Positions 10,272 through 24,012 of a DNA stretch of 60,218 bases are shown here, one piece after another (position 1 is the stretch's first letter; each line of letters begins with the position of its first letter). The translations under genes were made by a program, and so were the position numbers. Location: contig JANYDN010000371.1 in NCBI GenBank assembly GCA_025363585.1, positions 1 through 60,218 of the forward strand. The letters are read 5' to 3'. The DNA comes from Verrucomicrobiota bacterium. Its GTDB lineage: Bacteria > Verrucomicrobiota > Verrucomicrobiia > Limisphaerales > UBA9464. The notes under the pieces were generated by a model that had not been told where the DNA came from, searched no databases, and saw nothing but the letters and a program-made list of their open reading frames with translations.

Positions 10272-11801
10272 ATGGCGTTCGATTCCTTCAGGGACTGGGT
10301 CCTCGGCCTCGAGCGCGCCGGCGAACTCCGGCGCGTCAAGGTGCCCGTGGCCACGGAACTCGAGATCACCGCGTTGGCGGACGCCGAGATGAAATCGCCC
10401 GGCGGCGGCCGCGCGCTCCTGATCGAGCAACCCACCGTCGAGGGACGCGTCTCCCCCTTTCCCGTCGCGATCAACACCATGGGCTCCTGGAAGCGCATGG
10501 CCCTCGCCCTCGGCGGCGAATCCGTCGAGGCCGTCTCGCGGGAACTCGGAGAATTGCTCCACGCCAAACCGCCGACCGGGATCCGCGACGCGCTAAGACT
10601 TCTCGGACAGGCCATGGAACTCCGCCACGCGCGCCCCCGCACGGTGCGCGAGGGCGCCTGCCAGGAAGTCGTCCATCGATTCGATCCTCTTCCCACCCGC
10701 ACCACGCCTTGGCCGGCCGCGCCCGATATCCTTCGCGGCGAGACCACCGCGCCGTTCCCGCCGACGTTGCTCGATCTCCCCATCCTGAAATGTTGGCCGC
10801 TCGATGGCGGACGCTTCCTCACCCTGCCCTGCGTGGTCACCCAGGATCCGGATACCGGCGACCGCAACGTCGGCATGTACCGCGTACAGATCTACGATCC
10901 GCGGACGACGGGCGTTCACTGGCAATTGCAGAAGGTGGCGGCGCGCCATGGCCGTCGGTATTACGAAACCGGCCGCCGCATGCCGGTCGCCATCTTTCTT
11001 GGCGGTGATCCCGCGTTTCCTTTCGCCGCCACCGCGCCGTTGCCCGATGGTCTCGACGAGTTTCTTCTCGCTGGCTATCTGCGCCGCAAATCCGTCGATC
11101 TCGTCAAATGCCTGACGGTCGACCTCCAGGTGCCGGCCGACGCGGATTTCGTGATCGAGGGTTATGTCGATCCCACCGAACCGACCCGCATGGAAGGTCC
11201 GTTCGGCGACCACACCGGGTTCTATACGTTGCCAGAGCCGTATCCCGTGTTCCACGTGACCGCCGTCACTCACCGGCGCGACGCGGTGTATCCGGCCACG
11301 ATCGTCGGCGTTCCGCCGATGGAGGATTTCTATATTGGGAGCGCCTCGGTGAAATTGTTCCTGCCGGTGTTCCGGATGAATTTTCCCGAGATCGTCGACA
11401 TCGCGCTGCCCGCCGAGGGCGTGTTCCACAACCTGGTCGTGGTCAGCATCCGCAAGACGTACCCGATGCAGGCCTACAAGATCATGCACGGCCTGTGGGG
11501 CATGGGTCAGATGATGTTCACCAAATACCTCGTGGTGGTGGACGACGACGTCGACGTGCACGACACGCGCGACGTGTTGTTCCGCATGTGCGCGAACACG
11601 GACCCGCAGCGCGACACGCTCCTGACGCGCGGCCCGGCGGACGTGCTGGACCACGCGACGCCCGAGGTCGGCGCCGGCGGCAAACTAGGCATCGACGCCA
11701 CGCGCAAGCTACCGGGCGAGGGTTTCAAGCGGCCTTGGCCTCCATTGATCAAGATGGACCCCGCGGTCCGCGAGAAGATGTCGAAGCTGTTCAATATCTA
11801 A
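10272..11801 (+). CDS. ubiD: UbiD-family decarboxylase (menaquinone/futalosine-pathway type likely)
   Basis: RNVGMYRVQ, EGPFGDHTGFY, YPATIVGVPPMED and GGKLGIDATRK motifs. Confidence 0.93.
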   Translation: MAFDSFRDWVLGLERAGELRRVKVPVATELEITALADAEMKSPGGGRALLIEQPTVEGRVSPFPVAINTMGSWKRMALALGGESVEAVSRELGELLHAKPPTGIRDALRLLGQAMELRHARPRTVREGACQEVVHRFDPLPTRTTPWPAAPDILRGETTAPFPPTLLDLPILKCWPLDGGRFLTLPCVVTQDPDTGDRNVGMYRVQIYDPRTTGVHWQLQKVAARHGRRYYETGRRMPVAIFLGGDPAFPFAATAPLPDGLDEFLLAGYLRRKSVDLVKCLTVDLQVPADADFVIEGYVDPTEPTRMEGPFGDHTGFYTLPEPYPVFHVTAVTHRRDAVYPATIVGVPPMEDFYIGSASVKLFLPVFRMNFPEIVDIALPAEGVFHNLVVVSIRKTYPMQAYKIMHGLWGMGQMMFTKYLVVVDDDVDVHDTRDVLFRMCANTDPQRDTLLTRGPADVLDHATPEVGAGGKLGIDATRKLPGEGFKRPWPPLIKMDPAVREKMSKLFNI

Positions 11802-11897
11802 TATGAGCCGGCGAGCTTTGCCTTTGTTGATACCACGACGAAGGACGATGAAACCGGCACGGGCCGCATTCCGATTGGCCCATTATCCGTCGCCCCG

Positions 11898-12815
11898 TTG
11901 ACCTTGCTCGTCACTCTTGTTGCCGCTCGCGCCGTCTTCGGCGTGTCGGCGAACGCGCTCCAGAAGCGACTCGTCGATGGCGGCGTTTCCGTCCGACGCC
12001 TCTGGATGGCGACTTATCTCTGGATGCTGCTTCCGGCCGCGCTGATCGCCGCATTTCAGGTTATGCCACAGACCCCGGCGTTCTGGCGCGATGCCGCTTT
12101 GGCCGGCCTGTTCGACGCGCTCGGCAATCTCGCGATGGTCGCCGCCCTGCGCTCCACGGACCTCTCGTTGTTCGGGCCGCTGAACGCATTGCGCCCGCTG
12201 CTGGCACTGGTCTTCGGCTGGGTGTTCCTCGGCGAGCATCCGACGGTCATCGGTCTGGCCGGAATCGGCGTCACCGCAATGGGTGCCGCGTGGCTGCTGG
12301 CCGGCGACGGCGGGACCGGGAAGAAACTCGCTCCGCGCAGAACGGCTGAGATCCTTGGGTTGCGGTTTGGCGGATTGGCGTTGTCGTCGGTTGGCGCCGT
12401 GTTCCTGAAACGCGCGGCGGACCAAGGCGGAAGCGGCTGGACCCTGGCGATCTGGGTCGCGGCCGGCAGCGCGCTTCTGGCGATCGCCGCCTTCAACCGC
12501 GGGAACTCCAAGGAATCGACCGAGGCAAGCGACGCGTCCGACCGGGATATCAATTCCGGCGGACAAGGCTCCCCGCGTTTCCCGAGCGCGGCCGTGATCG
12601 CGCTGCACGCGGCGCTGTTCCTTGCGATGCAATGGGCGACGGTCGTGATTTTCCGCGGCGCGCTGCTGGCCTACTCGTTCGTCTTCTTCCAACTCGGCAT
12701 GATCCTGCAGGTCATCGTGGGCCGCGTGGTCTTCGGCGAACCGGCATTCGCAAAACGTCTGGCCGCATGCCTAATCATGGCCGCCGGCGCGGGACTTATA
12801 CTTTGGAAGGGCTGA
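11898..12815 (+). CDS. EamA/DMT-family membrane transporter
   Basis: About 10 hydrophobic segments; LALVFGWVFLGE and VGRVVFGE repeats. Confidence 0.8.
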   Translation: MTLLVTLVAARAVFGVSANALQKRLVDGGVSVRRLWMATYLWMLLPAALIAAFQVMPQTPAFWRDAALAGLFDALGNLAMVAALRSTDLSLFGPLNALRPLLALVFGWVFLGEHPTVIGLAGIGVTAMGAAWLLAGDGGTGKKLAPRRTAEILGLRFGGLALSSVGAVFLKRAADQGGSGWTLAIWVAAGSALLAIAAFNRGNSKESTEASDASDRDINSGGQGSPRFPSAAVIALHAALFLAMQWATVVIFRGALLAYSFVFFQLGMILQVIVGRVVFGEPAFAKRLAACLIMAAGAGLILWKG

Positions 12816-12932
12816 ACCACGGATCCGGGCCTGGTTGCACGGCCTATTCCCACGGGAAGGGATTGACCACGGACCACACGGAACGAAACCAAACGAGGCA
12901 CCTCCTTCCGTTGGGCTCCGTGCTGGGCGGCA

Positions 12933-13208
12933 TCATTCCAGTCTCCTCGGAACAAGCGCATCGCACTGCGCCTTGCATCCGGCCTCGACCAATCGACGCA
13001 GGATCTCGGGCTCGGTGCCGCAATAGCGATATGCCGCAATACATGAGCCTACCACCACCTCGATCATCCGGCTGATCTCCTCTGGTGTCTCGGGCGCAGT
13101 CTCGACCGGCAAGGAGCACGTGATGCACCGATCCTTCTCAACATGAAAAGGACCGGGCGCATTCTCTGGTTCCCGCTCGTAATGCGGCGTGACCATCTTG
13201 TCAGTCAT
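12933..13208 (-). CDS. Ferredoxin-like small protein in a gene cassette, possibly with an internal deletion
   Basis: NAPGPFHVEKDRCITCSLPVETAPE..TPEE..GSCIAAYRY; follows the attC at 13222. Confidence 0.6.
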   Translation of the reverse strand: MTDKMVTPHYEREPENAPGPFHVEKDRCITCSLPVETAPETPEEISRMIEVVVGSCIAAYRYCGTEPEILRRLVEAGCKAQCDALVPRRLE

Positions 13209-13221
13209 GGCGTGCGTGGCG

Positions 13222-13311
13222 GCCTAATGATCGGCCCGGGGACGCCGGGTCCCGAGCGTGGGAATGGAATGAGAACATAATCCCGGCATTGCCTGGCGCG
13301 ACCCGTTCGCC
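13222..13311 (-). mobile_element. attC site 2 (degenerate)
   Basis: Begins GGCGAAC (R'') 1 nt after the toxin stop, has an inner stem ATGCCGGG/CCCGGCGT, and ends ATTAGGC (GTTAGGC with G>A). R'' is the exact complement of the GTTCGCC that opens this cassette. Confidence 0.7.
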
Positions 13312-13312
13312 C

Positions 13313-13612
13313 TCAACTGGCCTCCGTCCTCCGCTTCGAACGGACAGGATCTCGCCGTAGATCAACTACGCCCGCCACCGTGACATCCGTACCATCGTGC
13401 GAATAGATGACAGCATACGGAAACCTGCGGAACAGGCAGCGCCTATGCCTGACACCAACCCGCGCCCATGCCTCGGGAAACCGATCCACCCTCGCCATCG
13501 TGGCCACGAACTCGTCGAGAAACTCGCCCCCAAGGCCGGGTGCCTGCGCCTCATACCACGCCGCAGCCTCTGCCAACTCCGATTCCGCGACACTGAGCAA
13601 CCGGTAGCTCAT
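13313..13612 (-). CDS. parE: RelE/ParE-family type II toxin
   Basis: AESELAEAAAWYEAQAPGLGGEF and RRCLFRRFPYAVIY; ATGA overlap with the antitoxin. Confidence 0.92.
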   Translation of the reverse strand: MSYRLLSVAESELAEAAAWYEAQAPGLGGEFLDEFVATMARVDRFPEAWARVGVRHRRCLFRRFPYAVIYSHDGTDVTVAGVVDLRRDPVRSKRRTEAS

Positions 13613-13830
13613 CGCAGCCGTCGCCGAATCGCGTCGATCGCCGACGGCCCATCGACCACGGACATCTCGCCCCGCTCGAAAGCCTCCAACCGGCGATCCG
13701 CCTCGCGTCCCCAGCGCTCCATGCGCTCGCCGTCTTCAAGCCCCAAAGTGAGCAGCAGGCGGTCCGCCAACAGCGCGCGCTCGGCAACCGTCAATCCGAG
13801 CGCCTCTCGTTCGATCGTGGCAGCGTCCAT
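13609..13830 (-). CDS. Addiction module antitoxin (TIGR02574-like)
   Basis: ALGLTVAERALLADRLLLTL..W..EADRRLEAFERG; coupled upstream of the ParE toxin. Confidence 0.9.
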   Translation of the reverse strand: MDAATIEREALGLTVAERALLADRLLLTLGLEDGERMERWGREADRRLEAFERGEMSVVDGPSAIDAIRRRLR

Positions 13831-13839
13831 GGTGCGGAA

Positions 13840-13868
13840 AGCCTACCCGACACCCCATCTCCCGGCAA
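13840..13868 (-). promoter_or_regulatory. sigma70-like promoter inside the TA cassette
   Basis: TTGCCG-N17-TAGGCT, ending 9 nt before the antitoxin ATG. Confidence 0.55.
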
Positions 13869-13886
13869 CCCGCATCAGGCGCATCA

Positions 13887-13981
13887 GGCGAACGAAACAA
13901 GCTCAGCGAGCCGGCGCACGGGACGCAGTGATTGCAATCCCGCGGCCGCGGGACCGGGTTCGCTGCAGCGCATGGTTGAAC
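13887..13981 (-). mobile_element. attC site 1
   Basis: GTTCAAC(R'')-CATGC-GCTGCAGC(L'', extra G)-GAACCCGG...CCGGCTC-GCTGAGC(L')-TTGTTTC-GTTCGCC(R'); 95 bp. Confidence 0.85.
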
Positions 13982-14061
13982 GAAGCCGCTGCGCCGGGGG
14001 GGGTCGCCGTAGTGGACGACGATGGTGTCCCGGGGCACATGCTCCGGGTGTATGAAAGTGT

Positions 14062-14364
14062 ATGAAAGCCACCACGCCACTACGGCAGACATTCATCGAT
14101 CATTCCCTCCAGTCCGCCGAAGCCCCGGGCGAAGGCGGATCACCCTCCGCCCGAACCGTCGGGACTTATATCACGTGGGTCACGGGTTTCGCCGGGTTTC
14201 ACGGGCGATCTCCCGATGCCCTCGGGCGTCCGGAGATCGCCTCGTGGTTACTCCACCCAATCCAACGGCGCAAGCACTCCGATTCCACCGTCACCCTCGC
14301 AAACACATCTCGGCAATGCTACCGGTTTACCCGGAAGGGGTCCGAGGGATTCTACAGGAGATAA
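14062..14364 (+). pseudogene. Tyrosine recombinase remnant (N-terminal SAM-like domain only; resembles the IS91-associated integrases)
   Basis: TPLRQTFID..SARTVGTYITWV..FHGRSPDALGRPEIASWLLH..RKHSDSTV. No catalytic domain follows, and a palindrome is inserted at 14113-14139. Confidence 0.75.
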
Positions 14365-14475
14365 GGGAGGGTGTGTTTTGGTAGATTGGTTGGATGACCC
14401 GAGCCTTCCGATCGCCGCCTCACCACGTTTCGATCCACAGAAGGGCCGCGGGCGGTCGAGTCTGTTGGGGCATTG

Positions 14476-14660
14476 AAACCACAGATTAGAGCCGATTTGT
14501 ACGGATTACCGCCGGACGTTGGAATTGACCACGGAGCACACGGAATGAGACCGTGCAAGGGCCTTCTTTCCGTGTGCTCCGTGTGCTCCGTGTGTTCCGT
14601 GTGCTCCGTGGTCCGAATATGAATCGGCACGCCAGCGCCCCAATCCGTGGTTTCCGTGGT
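14476..14660. repeat. 9-nt-period inverted repeat nest (ACCACGGAGCACACGGA / TCCGTGTGCTCCGTGGT)
   Basis: Left arm 14528-14545; right arm of four TCCGTGTG(C/T) units at about 14569-14612; further arm 14643-14660. Confidence 0.8.
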
Positions 14661-14667
14661 CCCGGTA

Positions 14668-16137
14668 CTACTTCTCTCGGAACGCCCAGAGGTGGCGGCC
14701 GGATCTAATATATAGCGTGTCGTCCGCGACCACCGGCGTCGCCGCGATCGGTTCGCCAAAATCGGTCTTCGACAAAACCTCGGGTTTGTCGCCCGGCTTC
14801 AGCGTCACGACCACGCCGCTCTGGGCCGCGATCAGGATCTTGTCCCCCACCGCCACGGGCGAGGCATAGTAGTCGCCCGGGACCCCGATGCGTTCCTTGT
14901 CCGCCAAAACCTTTCCCGTCGCCGCCTCGTAGATGGTCAGCAACCCGCCGTCCTTGATTAGGTAGACCCGACCGTCATGCACCAACGGCGACGCCACATA
15001 GGGCGCGCCCTTGTCGTTCGACCACCGCACGTGCGTGTCGGTGATGTCGCCCTTGCCGCCGGGCTTGATCGAGACCACCGCGTTCTTGCCGCGCGCCATG
15101 TAGCTAAGGCTGTCTTCCCACTCCTCGGGATCGATGAAGCCGTTCTTGTTCTTGTCGAACAACACGAAGAAGTCCGCCATGAACGTGCCCTCCGAATCGG
15201 CCTTGGACAATTTGCCGTCCTTGTCCTTGTCCATCATCGCGAGGAATTCCGGCCACGCCGGCATGTTGCGCTCGTTGCTGGAGCCATTGCTCCACGTGGC
15301 TATATATAAATTGCCGTCCGCACCCGGCGTGGGCGACGTGCAGGGATACGCGGCGAGCCCGCGCACCGACCAACGGTCCGCGCCGGTCTTGGGATCGTAA
15401 GCCTTGACCCGGAGATCGCCGAGGGCGACCAGATTGCCATCCCAGATCAACGGCGTGCCGAAGCTCACCCGGAACCCGTCACGATCCCGTCGCCAGACCT
15501 GCTTGCCGGACTTGAGATCGAAGGCATAGAGCCCCTTGCCTGGACCGTCCTCGTCGCGGAGCAGATAGACCAAACCGTCGTGGACGATGGGCGATGTCCC
15601 CGAGCCAAACCCGTCCTTGGTCTGCGGGAGCGGGAGTGCCACGCGCCATTGCTCGGTGCCCGCGAGATCGTGGCATATAAGTCCGAACGACCCGAAATAA
15701 CTCACGACGCGCCGCCCTTCGCTGGCGCAGGTGGAGGCGGCGGGCGAGCCCAGCTTCACGAAATACGGCTCGAGCTTTTCCGGCGTGATCGTCCGGCGCC
15801 ACGCCACGGAACCGTCCGCGCGCTTGATGGCCAGTGTCTCCAGCGTCTTGTCGCCGTCGAACCCGGTAAGGTAAATGCGGTCGCCGACGATGCAGGGCGT
15901 GCTCTGTCCGGACGAGATCTCGGCTTTCCAAAAGACGTTTTTGTCCGGGCCAAATTCCTTGGGCGCGTGTTGGCCGGCGAAGACGTTGTCGCAACGCGTG
16001 CCGCGGAACTGGGGCCATGAAGCGGGTGCGGCGGACAATCCGGCGGCGGCGGCAACGGCCATGGCGAGGGCGATCGTCCACGGTTGCGGTGTCGGCCGGA
16101 GGTCGCCCCGCCTTCCCGCACCAAACGTCGGATTCAT
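14668..16137 (-). CDS. PQQ-like (BamB-like) beta-propeller protein with EF-hand insert
   Basis: WPQFRG, GSGTSPIV and YYASPV repeats; DKDKDGKLSKAD and DKNKNGFIDPEE loops. Confidence 0.88.
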   Translation of the reverse strand: MNPTFGAGRRGDLRPTPQPWTIALAMAVAAAAGLSAAPASWPQFRGTRCDNVFAGQHAPKEFGPDKNVFWKAEISSGQSTPCIVGDRIYLTGFDGDKTLETLAIKRADGSVAWRRTITPEKLEPYFVKLGSPAASTCASEGRRVVSYFGSFGLICHDLAGTEQWRVALPLPQTKDGFGSGTSPIVHDGLVYLLRDEDGPGKGLYAFDLKSGKQVWRRDRDGFRVSFGTPLIWDGNLVALGDLRVKAYDPKTGADRWSVRGLAAYPCTSPTPGADGNLYIATWSNGSSNERNMPAWPEFLAMMDKDKDGKLSKADSEGTFMADFFVLFDKNKNGFIDPEEWEDSLSYMARGKNAVVSIKPGGKGDITDTHVRWSNDKGAPYVASPLVHDGRVYLIKDGGLLTIYEAATGKVLADKERIGVPGDYYASPVAVGDKILIAAQSGVVVTLKPGDKPEVLSKTDFGEPIAATPVVADDTLYIRSGRHLWAFREK

Positions 16138-16193
16138 GCGCGGTTGATGCGGGGATTTGGCCGAAGAAGCAAATGGGTTCTTGGGGGCGCAAC

Positions 16194-16705
16194 TTCCCAC
16201 TGTCGCCCGGATCGCCAGGAAAGAGACCCCGGAATGATTTTGCGGGAGGTAACGGAGCTGGGGGCCGTGACTCCGGCAGATGATCCACATTCCTTCTGCG
16301 CCTCCGCGCCTCTGCGGGAAGATCTCAACACGGGTTTTATTCCCGCGGCCGGATCGTTGTTCATGTGCCAGCCGCGGAAGACGTCCGCAGATGCCGCAGA
16401 TGGCGCAGATAGTTGTCGGTGCTGAAGATCTGCGTTATCTGCGCCATCTGCGGACCAAAAGGGATGCCACGTTGCCGGCCGCCGCGGGAGTATTGCGGAG
16501 AAGGGTATGGAGACATGATCTTCGCGTCCCTCGCGGCTTCGCGTGAGTCTTCCTCGATCCGTGACACATCGTCCTTTCGCGGTTTGCCTTCGCGCGAAAA
16601 GGAACGAGGCGAGTCGTGCCCGCAAGCAAGACGAAGCCCCTGTTTTCTCCGTCACCTCCTGTCGAAAGTCCCGGTCCCGTTCGGGGTGGTTGGGGCAGTG
16701 GCAAG
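16194..16705. repeat. Composite nested palindromic repeat region
   Basis: GGAGGTAACGGAG (16244) / CTCCGTCACCTCC (16647); CCGCAGATGGCGCAGAT / ATCTGCGCCATCTGCGG; solo arms TCTGCGCCTCCGCGCCTCTGCG and CTTCGCGTCCCTCGCGGCTTCGCGTGA. Confidence 0.7.
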
Positions 16706-16760
16706 GTGTGCCCGGTTCTTCCTTGATCCTGTCGCCGTTCGGCCGCCCAACTCATCGCCG

Positions 16761-17573
16761 ATGAACGTTCGCACGCGCCTTCCCGTCGCGCTCACCATCG
16801 CCGGATCCGATTCCGGCGGCGGCGCGGGCATCCAGGCCGATCTCAAGACGTTCGCCGCCCTTGGCGTCCACGGCACCACTGCGATCACCTGTCTCACGGC
16901 GCAAAATCCGAAAACCGTCACCGCGGTGCACGCGGCGCCGGCGGCATTCGTCCGCGCGCAGATCGACGCCGTGTTCGCGGAGCTGCCGCCGCGCGCGGCG
17001 AAGAGCGGAATGCTCTTCGACACGGCGATCATCCGCGAGGTCGCCCGCGCGTGGCGCGAACCGCGCCGTCCGATGCTCGTCGTGGATCCAGTGATGCTCT
17101 CCACCAGCGGCGCGGCGTTGCTGAAAAACTCCGCGCAAAAGGCGCTCCGCGACGAACTCCTGCCGCTCGCCTCCCTCGTCACGCCGAATCTCGACGAGGC
17201 AGCCGCGTTGCTCGGGCGCGCGCTGGAGTCGGTCGACGATCTCAGGCAGGCCGCGCGCGATCTCCACTCGCGGTTCGGCGTGGCGTTCCTCGTGAAGGGC
17301 GGCCACCTGCGCGGACTACGCGACGCGGTGGATGTCTATTGGGACGGCACGGAGGAGTTGTTGCTGTCGGCACCGTTCGTCCGGGGTGTCGCCACGCACG
17401 GCACCGGTTGCACCTATGCGGCGGCGATCACGGCTGACCTGGCGCGGGGACTAAAGTTGCCGCGCGCGGTCGAACTGGCGAAACACCACGTCACGCAGGC
17501 CATCGATCGATCGACGCGGGTTGGAAAACACACGGCGTTGAATCCGTTCTGGGACCAAGAGCGGCGGGGCTAA
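16761..17573 (+). CDS. thiD: Hydroxymethylpyrimidine/phosphomethylpyrimidine kinase
   Basis: LTIAGSDSGGGAGIQADLKT, TPNLDEA, KGGH and THGTGCT motifs. Confidence 0.96.
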   Translation: MNVRTRLPVALTIAGSDSGGGAGIQADLKTFAALGVHGTTAITCLTAQNPKTVTAVHAAPAAFVRAQIDAVFAELPPRAAKSGMLFDTAIIREVARAWREPRRPMLVVDPVMLSTSGAALLKNSAQKALRDELLPLASLVTPNLDEAAALLGRALESVDDLRQAARDLHSRFGVAFLVKGGHLRGLRDAVDVYWDGTEELLLSAPFVRGVATHGTGCTYAAAITADLARGLKLPRAVELAKHHVTQAIDRSTRVGKHTALNPFWDQERRG

Positions 17574-23743: not shown

Positions 23744-24012
23744 CCGACGGGAATCACGGAACCGGGGGCTTCGGGATTTTTAACCACGGAGCACACGGAG
23801 CACACGGAAGTGTGGAAGCGAAGAGACCGTCCGTTTTTTACCACGGAAATCACGGAATCGGACGGCATACAGGATTCGGACTGCTTCTTGTGATTACCTG
23901 TTTTTCCTTTCCGTGATTTCCGTGGTTTCCGTGGTAAAAATATAGGTTCCACGGCTCTTTCGAGCTCCGTGTGCTCCGTGGTAAAAATTCCCGGCATCCG
24001 CGTCCGTGGTCT
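23744..24012. repeat. Nested 9-nt-period inverted repeats
   Basis: Outer arms 23772-23809 / 23965-23994; inner arms 23834-23857 / 23909-23940. Confidence 0.85.

Follow-up and report, generated by a model that had tools for sequence, protein, structure and literature searches.

A decaying CALIN in a Verrucomicrobiota genome, probably hit by an attC-targeting IS91-family element with an IntI-like recombinase

Described attC-homing elements and the present locus

Two kinds of mobile element that home to the attC sites of integron cassettes have been described, the IS1111-attC group of insertion sequences (IS) and the group IIC-attC introns, both of which lie near the 5' end of attC and antisense to the cassettes (PMC3001079). 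Here we analyse a stretch of 60,218 nucleotides (nt) from a Verrucomicrobiota bacterium of the order Limisphaerales (the window; contig JANYDN010000371.1 of assembly GCA_025363585.1), in which a fragment of a tyrosine recombinase gene adjoins a pair of attC sites. Our reading, to which we give a probability of about 0.8, is that the locus is a CALIN, i.e., a cluster of attC sites without an integron integrase (PMC4889954), hit by an attC-targeting IS91-family element that carries a recombinase resembling the integron integrase IntI, and that the copy in the window is the dead left end of this element. The locus is a decayed relic, yet it would expose a third kind of attC-homing mobile element after the IS1111-attC group and the group IIC-attC introns, and one that carries the nearest known relative of IntI.

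The place and orientation of the element at attC match those of both described kinds (PMC3001079). The IS1111-attC group (ISPa21 and ISPst6, of the IS110 family) likewise consists of attC-targeting IS, but these have a DEDD transposase, whereas the element here has a Y2/HUH IS91 transposase together with an IntI-like tyrosine recombinase; group IIC-attC introns are retroelements with a ribozyme and a reverse transcriptase. Scans with Pfam, NCBIfam and Rfam found neither a DEDD transposase nor a ribozyme and reverse transcriptase here. With the IS91/ISCR elements (IS91, IS801, IS1294) the present element has in common the Y2_Tnp and Zn_Tnp_IS91 domains, the lack of a target duplication, end tetranucleotides and subterminal palindromes. 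In contrast to it, classical IS91 members lack a recombinase and have no known attC preference, whereas its left terminus is fixed at the R'' box of attC. In a Shewanella integron, the IS91-like element ISShvi3 was once remarked to lie 'adjacent to an attC site' (PMC9229058), and by this description it may be comparable to the present element. Apart from that remark, the accessible full-text literature outside subscription papers and ISfinder describes no attC targeting by IS91-type elements, a provisional result. Among recombinases, IntI is the nearest family, with a common SAM-like N domain and a match to the integron-integrase model TIGR02249; the IntI gene adjoins attI, whereas the IS91-linked recombinase gene adjoins a transposase gene and its product lacks the IntI insertion. 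Finally, the window locus matches a CALIN in its pair of attC sites, in having no intI nearby and in the presence of IntI elsewhere in the genome; there is no difference of substance, and the locus is of the minimum size.

The features on which the argument turns are listed below, with positions in the window. R1 is the attC covariance model introduced in the next section.

13222-13311, + strand (attC bottom strand): attC site that closes the toxin-antitoxin (TA) cassette, with the R' box at its left end and the R'' box GTTCGCC at its right end (R1 80.4 bits, alignment, covariation)
13887-13981, + strand (attC bottom strand): attC site whose left box, GGCGAAC, is the TA cassette boundary (R1 77.3 bits; homologues on contig C169)
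13975-14370, + strand: truncated left end of an IS91-family element, comprising the terminus GTTGAACGAAGCCGCTGCGC, an 84 nt leader and a recombinase pseudogene
14062-14364, + strand: recombinase fragment, an open reading frame (ORF) of 100 amino acids (aa) with a Phage_int_SAM_4 match in Pfam

The attC sites, their polarity and the CALIN

The assembly of the window genome comprises 405 contigs and is 90% complete, the window being contig C141. A BLAST comparison of the region with its own genome returned counterparts of 13239-13309 and 13889-13977 on contig C169 at 77-79% identity, which flank a diverged ParE/antitoxin pair and are more conserved than the genes between them; site 13222-13311 has a 77% identical homologue after the ParE gene there. 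Six sites of the genome (two in the window, three on C169 and one on C184) could be aligned and follow one plan, i.e., an AAC box, a spacer of 5-7 nt, a 15-bp stem with two bulged bases on its 3' arm (of the + strand in the window), a variable loop and a GTT box, and four of the stem pairs covary between two sequence types. From these six sites we built the covariance model R1, which is not IntegronFinder's attC model. R1 recovered both attC sites that had been claimed in a preliminary description of this DNA, with the scores listed above. It found few further matches in the fragmented window assembly, and it matched in 114 of the 151 genomes of the order (the window genome counted), often in arrays with 300-900 nt spacing. 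Among 55 distinct matches, 98.3% of the pair cells are standard and 14 of the 15 stem pairs show compensatory changes; the covariation score was 0.507, compared with at most 0.042 for slid partners, and was reached by none of 500 shuffles. The sites combine the imperfect palindrome, the AAC...GTT boxes, the unpaired spacer and the extrahelical bases on one arm by which attC is recognized structurally. On this sequence evidence, 13222-13311 and 13887-13981 are real attC sites and predicted IntI substrates, and they belong to the family that is used by the canonical IntI integrons of the order.

As the AAC/GTT boxes and the complementarity of the cassette ends are symmetric, they cannot reveal the strand. 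Polarity was therefore calibrated on integrons. Five genomes were examined and three of them (G051, G061 and G116) have an IntI above cut-off; in all three the R1 matches lie upstream of intI on the intI coding strand, and the arrays beside intI keep this fixed orientation. The same arrangement is seen at a partial intI in one of these genomes (G061:C231). It follows that the + strand of the window is the attC bottom strand and that the cassettes are read on the minus strand, which agrees with the minus-strand ORFs here and on C169 and with the bulges on the 3' arm. The opposite assignment, with the + strand as attC top strand and the recombinase remnant as an ordinary cassette start, is rejected in view of the IntI calibration, the ORF orientation and the bulge position. 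The minus strand, on which the cassettes have their top strand, shows in turn a dead IS fragment, attC 13981-13887, the antitoxin/ParE cassette, attC 13311-13222, the cassette of a 91-aa ORF and a degenerate end. The integron geometry proposed for the locus is correct in its orientation.

The TA cassette opens with GTTCGCC (13893-13887) and closes with GGCGAAC (13311-13305), which are complementary at 7/7 positions as had been pointed out; on the + strand these ends read GTTCGCC at 13305-13311 and GGCGAAC at 13887-13893. At the corresponding ends of the paralogous TA cassette on C169, a compensating change gives GTTCGGC/GCCGAAC. For the second cassette, the boxes (A)TTAGGC (13228-13222) and GCCCAAC (12916-12910) are present as described, but the assignment of GCCCAAC as an R''-like attC end did not hold. 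On the + strand this box is GTTGGGC at 12910-12916 and sits inside a dispersed CACGGAGCACACGGA hairpin repeat, and R1 returned no match covering it at E<=1. This copy of the repeat (12865-12922) holds a GAACGAAAC stretch that resembles the 5' part of an attC bottom strand, and the box is possibly, at most, the relic of a degenerate attC with its hairpin deleted.

The two attC sites lie 576 nt apart by R1, our own model, and hence within the 4 kb that delimit a CALIN of two or more sites, and a search of the whole genome with TIGR02249 gave no match on C141. The recombinase fragment next to the sites scores 14.6 bits on this model, and the locus is accordingly not a complete integron. The only match above cut-off in the genome (445 bits; cut-off 265) is an intact 324-aa IntI on contig C154 (C154:11940-12914, L019), in which the IntI insertion is present; its gene is at the very end of C154, and attI or an array was therefore not assembled with intI. 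Altogether, the window locus is a genuine, minimal, decaying CALIN, and the intact IntI encoded elsewhere could act in trans on its attC sites.

A longer array is found at C169:34686-41634 (L017 4687-11635), with at least six attC-type sites and with its ORFs all on one strand, most of them orphans. It contains two tandem, internally deleted IS91-recombinase elements that are 90% identical, and the toxin of its ParE/antitoxin cassette is frameshifted. The array exits the contig end in an orientation that matches the C154 intI and could be its continuation.

The IS91-type element and its junction with attC

Over residues 1 to ~88 the remnant shows homology to IS91-associated IntI-like tyrosine recombinases in their N-terminal SAM-like domain, apart from an insert of 9 aa; the remainder is non-homologous. 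The best NCBIfam matches of the 100-aa fragment are integron-integrase models, all of them weak. Among 200 other genomes of the order, the closest intact genes encode 289-aa recombinases directly upstream of IS91-type transposases, at 37-41% identity. An exhaustive phmmer search with the remnant gave 60 matches, the best of them 61% identical; in one (59% identical) the same N-terminus is fused to a CPRCG...GRLDAHG...DTS tail, which both C169 units also encode and which, in intact elements, ends the IS91 transposase. A metagenome scan for relatives returned 80 loci, whose intact forms encode a recombinase of 285-295 aa followed by a transposase of ~400 aa, the intact element measuring ~2.6-2.9 kb. 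The intact recombinases match PF00589 and PF13495 and have TIGR02249 as their best or second-best NCBIfam match, at 164-178 bits in two stretches and thus below its cut-off; aligned with the IntI of the window genome (34-36% identity), they lack the helical insertion in the catalytic domain that is specific to IntI. The transposase beside the recombinase scores 375 bits on NF033538 and contains Y2_Tnp and Zn_Tnp_IS91. The 'integron-like subgroup' of a published analysis likewise includes recombinases from IS91 and IS3 elements, which are given there as the nearest homologues of IntI that lack its insertion (bioRxiv 10.1101/542381). The preliminary description had likened the remnant to integrases upstream of IS91-like transposases rather than to IntI and had proposed a search for intact homologues; both this source and the homologues now found, which lack the IntI insertion, precede an IS91/Y2 transposase and adjoin attC sites, agree with it.

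The copy in the window keeps only the left ~400 nt of the element. Its homology to the other copies ends at ~14328-14370, it contains no transposase gene, and the right end of the element is absent from it, the alignment scores for that end in 14330-14530 falling within those of shuffles. Domains of a Y2/HUH transposase (PF04986, PF14319, NF033538) are present in the intact relatives and missing from the window copy and from the assembly. Three further copies exist in the genome, two on C169 as tandem units and one on C184 at a contig end, and all four lose homology at ~codon 88. Since the C169 copies, which encode the recombinase N-terminus and the C-terminal tail of the transposase, keep both ends, they are internal-deletion derivatives. 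The remnant is, in sum, the first ~88 codons and the 84-nt left terminus of an IS91-family element with an IntI-like recombinase, and the window copy is inert after losing everything past codon ~88. Other searches for relatives were negative: a word-index search gave no longer homologues of the remnant, a peptide-pattern scan of the genome contigs gave no confirmed match, and a 43-nt left-end pattern allowing up to 3 mismatches had 0 matches in 400 other genomes of the order, this pattern being too strict, with only 2 of the 4 copies of the own genome matched.

Several side observations concern the reading frame and the rearrangements of such elements. In the non-window copies (L017 7035-7200 and 8902-9070; the end of L018) a 35-nt tandem duplication and an 11-nt insert break the frame; the window copy has neither and keeps one open frame. 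Through internal deletion, four metagenome copies (L030, L031, L038 and L039) encode in-frame fusions of the recombinase with the HUH portion of the transposase, in open frames of 506-532 aa. Two database proteins (P0005 and P0007) contain two tandem copies of the N-terminal recombinase domain (MTPLRAKYIRDL), which suggests tandem repeats of element stumps elsewhere.

In 4/4 genome copies the left junction with attC is GTT/GAACGAAGCC, read more fully as ...GTT/GAACGAAGCCGCTGCGC, i.e., the left end of the element is joined to the 3' GTT of the attC bottom strand; at three copies this is a clear attC, with two types of site represented, and at the fourth a truncated one. In the window, the IS91-type element joined to 13887-13981 has turned the right box of this site into GTTGAAC. 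Copies A, B and C184 agree at 94% over the first 130 nt of the element and at 48-58% over the 98 nt on the attC side, which marks the boundary between element and target. The metagenome loci show the same pattern on a larger scale. They contain 86 R1 matches, with all but one independent match on the strand of the recombinase gene; in 38 of the 80 the R1 site ends 59-186 nt before the start codon; where the upstream sequence spans 260 nt or more, this holds for 36 of 52 loci. All such sites (38/38) end in GTTGAAC followed by the common terminus, always on the gene's strand. For eight copies from one metagenome the median identity is 92% within the element, as against 59% within the adjoining attC. 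Relatives of the remnant are thus strongly enriched beside attC at one fixed junction, which answers the check for adjacent attC arrays named in the preliminary description.

These loci also bear on the idea of a new cassette-capture platform, in which the IntI-like recombinase would be a resident integrase and the neighbouring site the equivalent of attI. Array sites do lie upstream of the recombinase gene in many loci and on its strand, as they do for IntI, and the recombinase family is the closest relative of IntI. The gene is, however, followed by an IS91 transposase and framed by conserved termini; the unit is multicopy and occurs as deletion derivatives; arrays extend beyond it, both on C169 and in 5 of the 27 loci whose sequence continues for 2.6 kb or more past the start; the adjacent attC is variable (48-58% against 94% for the element); the junction is at R'' and not at the cassette crossover box; and a canonical IntI exists in the same genome. 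We therefore regard a platform as extremely improbable. It was one of two alternatives offered in the preliminary description; the other, a CALIN hit by an attC-targeting element, is upheld by the recombinase family and the fixed junction.

Further evidence for insertion into attC comes from the right end of the element. Eight aligned right ends finish in ...CTAYYYCGC(N6-7) and are followed in 7/8 by a GTTRRRY-like flank (GTTAGGC twice, GTTGGAC twice, GTTGGGC, GTTGGCA and GTTACTG), the eighth being GTAACGT. These right flanks are the displaced R'' box of the interrupted attC, and the elements lie antisense to the cassettes. The element family probably inserts at one fixed place of the attC bottom strand, with the hairpin on one side and the 3' GTTRRRY box (R'') on the other, after which its GTTGAAC left terminus abuts the attC hairpin and its hairpin-bearing right end the displaced GTTRRRY. 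Members of the IS91 family make no target duplication, have a CTTG, GTTC or GTCC tetranucleotide flanking oriIS, a similar tetranucleotide at the terIS cleavage site and subterminal palindromes, and move through a single-stranded circle, often with read-through at terIS, i.e., one-ended transposition (PMC13181058). The element conforms to these rules, with a GTTG left terminus, a hairpin before the right end and a GTTR right flank in 7/8, and this fit favours insertion by the Y2 transposase. Such an insertion may be single-stranded and of the rolling-circle type, 5' of GTTR in the attC R'' box, with the specificity for attC provided by the extruded attC hairpin, by the IntI-like recombinase, or by both.

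The right end also allows the element to be viewed as an integron cassette moved by the host IntI, with the right-end hairpin flanked by GTCCAAC...GTT as its own attC. The right end and its flank do form an attC-like unit, with R boxes complementary at 6-7 of 7 positions, and GTT is found at both junctions. On the other hand, the element points against the cassettes in every case (38/38) and sits each time at the R'' side of the attC it has entered, which is not expected as a rule from bottom-strand recombination by IntI; its termini and flanking tetranucleotides obey the IS91 rules (PMC13181058); and R1 does not recognize the right end. An origin as a cassette is in our view highly unlikely, and insertion as an IS91-type element is preferred.

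The left terminus is widespread. Its exact 22 nt occur in at least 122 stretches of a species-representative genome collection, the carriers among the matches listed being Verrucomicrobia, Vibrio, Photobacterium, Psychromonas, Moritella, Holophagaceae and Desulfobacteraceae, as well as Myxococcales, Planctomycetaceae and Spirochaetaceae; an unchanged terminus is thus seen, among these matches, in groups that include Vibrionaceae, Acidobacteria, Deltaproteobacteria and Planctomycetes. Of the 80 genome loci fetched, 17 have an R1 site that ends exactly at the 22-nt terminus, and among 14 loci that were inspected, several flanks from Photobacterium, Vibrio and Psychromonas fold like attC bottom strands. 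Two single cases may be added. One Limisphaerales chromosome (L176-L178) has three left termini within 8 kb, with an R1 attC abutting each. In a Vibrio thalassae record (L133) the left end abuts a perfect 15-bp terminator-like hairpin and not an attC-like site, which hints that a hairpin plus GTT may be the minimal target.

Several results weigh against the targeting of attC by an IS91-type element, or against the strength with which it can be stated. R1 was derived from sites of the genome in question, and alignment A4 was fitted to R1. The single-sequence fold energies of the sites are no better than those of shuffles (z -0.4 to +0.5, in GC-rich DNA), so that the case for attC is one of covariation, homology and context and not of stability; the fold energy of the element's right end is likewise not significant against shuffles. 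In the 90%-complete, 405-contig assembly we found no intact element, no intact recombinase of the IS91-linked type and no IS91 transposase. Among the metagenome loci, 16 of the 52 testable ones have no R1 match nearby. The terminus is present in 13 of these 16. Visual inspection sorts the 13 into at least 6 that adjoin attC-like hairpins of other kinds, again with two 3'-arm bulges, 4 that adjoin no more than the final ~20 nt of an attC, and 3 unclear cases. Nor does an R1 site adjoin the most distant pair of intact relatives from the order (L020 and L022). In the genome collection, one Vibrio flank among the 14 loci is a perfect terminator-like hairpin and another locus has no hairpin; an energy test forced to close AAC..GTT placed 6/71 loci below the 5th percentile of controls, and a long terminal hairpin is found in 29/76 loci compared with 43/195 controls, a modest enrichment. 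As these generic fold tests are weak, attC targeting beyond R1-type sites is only partly shown. Finally, the GTT common to both junctions would also fit a crossover by a tyrosine recombinase.

If the recombinase reads the structure of attC without the IntI insertion, it would offer a natural comparison for how IntI gained its single-strand specificity, and if the element mobilises adjacent cassettes, it would provide a route for the formation of CALINs, whose origin is described as an open question (PMC4889954). One might go further and speculate that an IS91 lineage spanning phyla recruited the closest relative of IntI as a homing device that reads folded attC and directs or performs insertion at R'', and that terIS read-through carries cassettes along, seeds CALINs and moves cassettes between genomes independently of IntI; this extension is tentative and we consider it rather doubtful. 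Annotators should check for IS91-type elements before they score a recombinase fragment beside an attC array as an intI pseudogene.

Borders, cassette genes and dispersed repeats

The remaining features of the locus are as follows.

11898-12815, + strand: EamA-family transporter gene, which borders the cluster on the left
12865-12922, no strand assigned: copy of the dispersed CACGGAGCACACGGA hairpin repeat, which recurs on many contigs (no call by R1)
12933-13208, - strand: cassette ORF of 91 aa, related to hypothetical proteins of 117-121 aa (homologue comparison)
13313-13612, - strand: ParE-family toxin gene, 99 aa (PF05016 23.2 bits, cut-off 23)
13609-13830, - strand: antitoxin gene, 73 aa (Unstab_antitox, PF09720 35.7 bits)
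14521-14661, no strand assigned: further copies of the dispersed hairpin repeat (CACGG), located after the element remnant and before the PQQ-repeat gene end
14668-16290, - strand: PQQ-repeat/beta-propeller gene, which borders the cluster on the right

Between the EamA and PQQ genes, three small ORFs lie on the minus strand and one on the plus strand. We searched the 6.5 kb of 11000-17500 at the DNA level against five relatives and found only the end genes in common, on separate contigs there; the EamA-to-PQQ stretch itself has no DNA-level counterpart in the five. In a genome of the same genus, fragments of the attC sites and parts of the left end of the element are located elsewhere. The cluster might have arrived together with the element, through one-ended transposition that ran past terIS into the cassettes or through recombination between copies of the IS. 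In favour of this, the terIS side of the element is where the cassettes are found, and one-ended transposition would take up DNA from that side; such events are described as frequent in the IS91 family (PMC13181058) and IS as common beside CALINs (PMC4889954), and the missing counterpart in the five relatives points the same way. Against it, the window copy has no right end and hence no readable insertion junction, no empty site was found, and the left border resembles a decayed attC and a dispersed repeat. We consider arrival with the element unlikely and prefer an element that struck an existing CALIN; for the origin of the cluster itself, one-ended transposition, recombination between IS copies and insertion by IntI at a secondary site are candidate routes.

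The toxin and antitoxin genes overlap by 4 nt and, as adjacent genes for an antitoxin and a ParE-fold toxin, form a predicted ParDE-type pair, with the toxin barely at the Pfam cut-off. The preliminary description had given this cassette its own promoter and had called the gene at 12933-13208 ferredoxin-like. Neither proposal was borne out: a sigma-70 scan gave 0 sites in 12800-14700, and the 91-aa ORF has no Pfam or NCBIfam match. Among its 66 homologues, the named ones are hypothetical or conserved hypothetical proteins, except for one distant homologue called a ferredoxin by its source. Relative to the 117-121-aa family, the ORF lacks 27 internal Cys-rich residues, including a CxxC-containing stretch.

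An Rfam scan of 12700-14800 gave a sub-threshold microRNA as its sole match. Tandem 9-mers (TCCGTGTGC) and hairpins with the CACGGAGCACACGGA motif occur at 12865-12922, 14527-14661 and 23782-23983, with 7 matches in the window compared with 0.06 expected. The dispersed CACGGAGCACACGGA repeat is found on dozens of contigs of the genome, and one copy lies just downstream of intI on C154.

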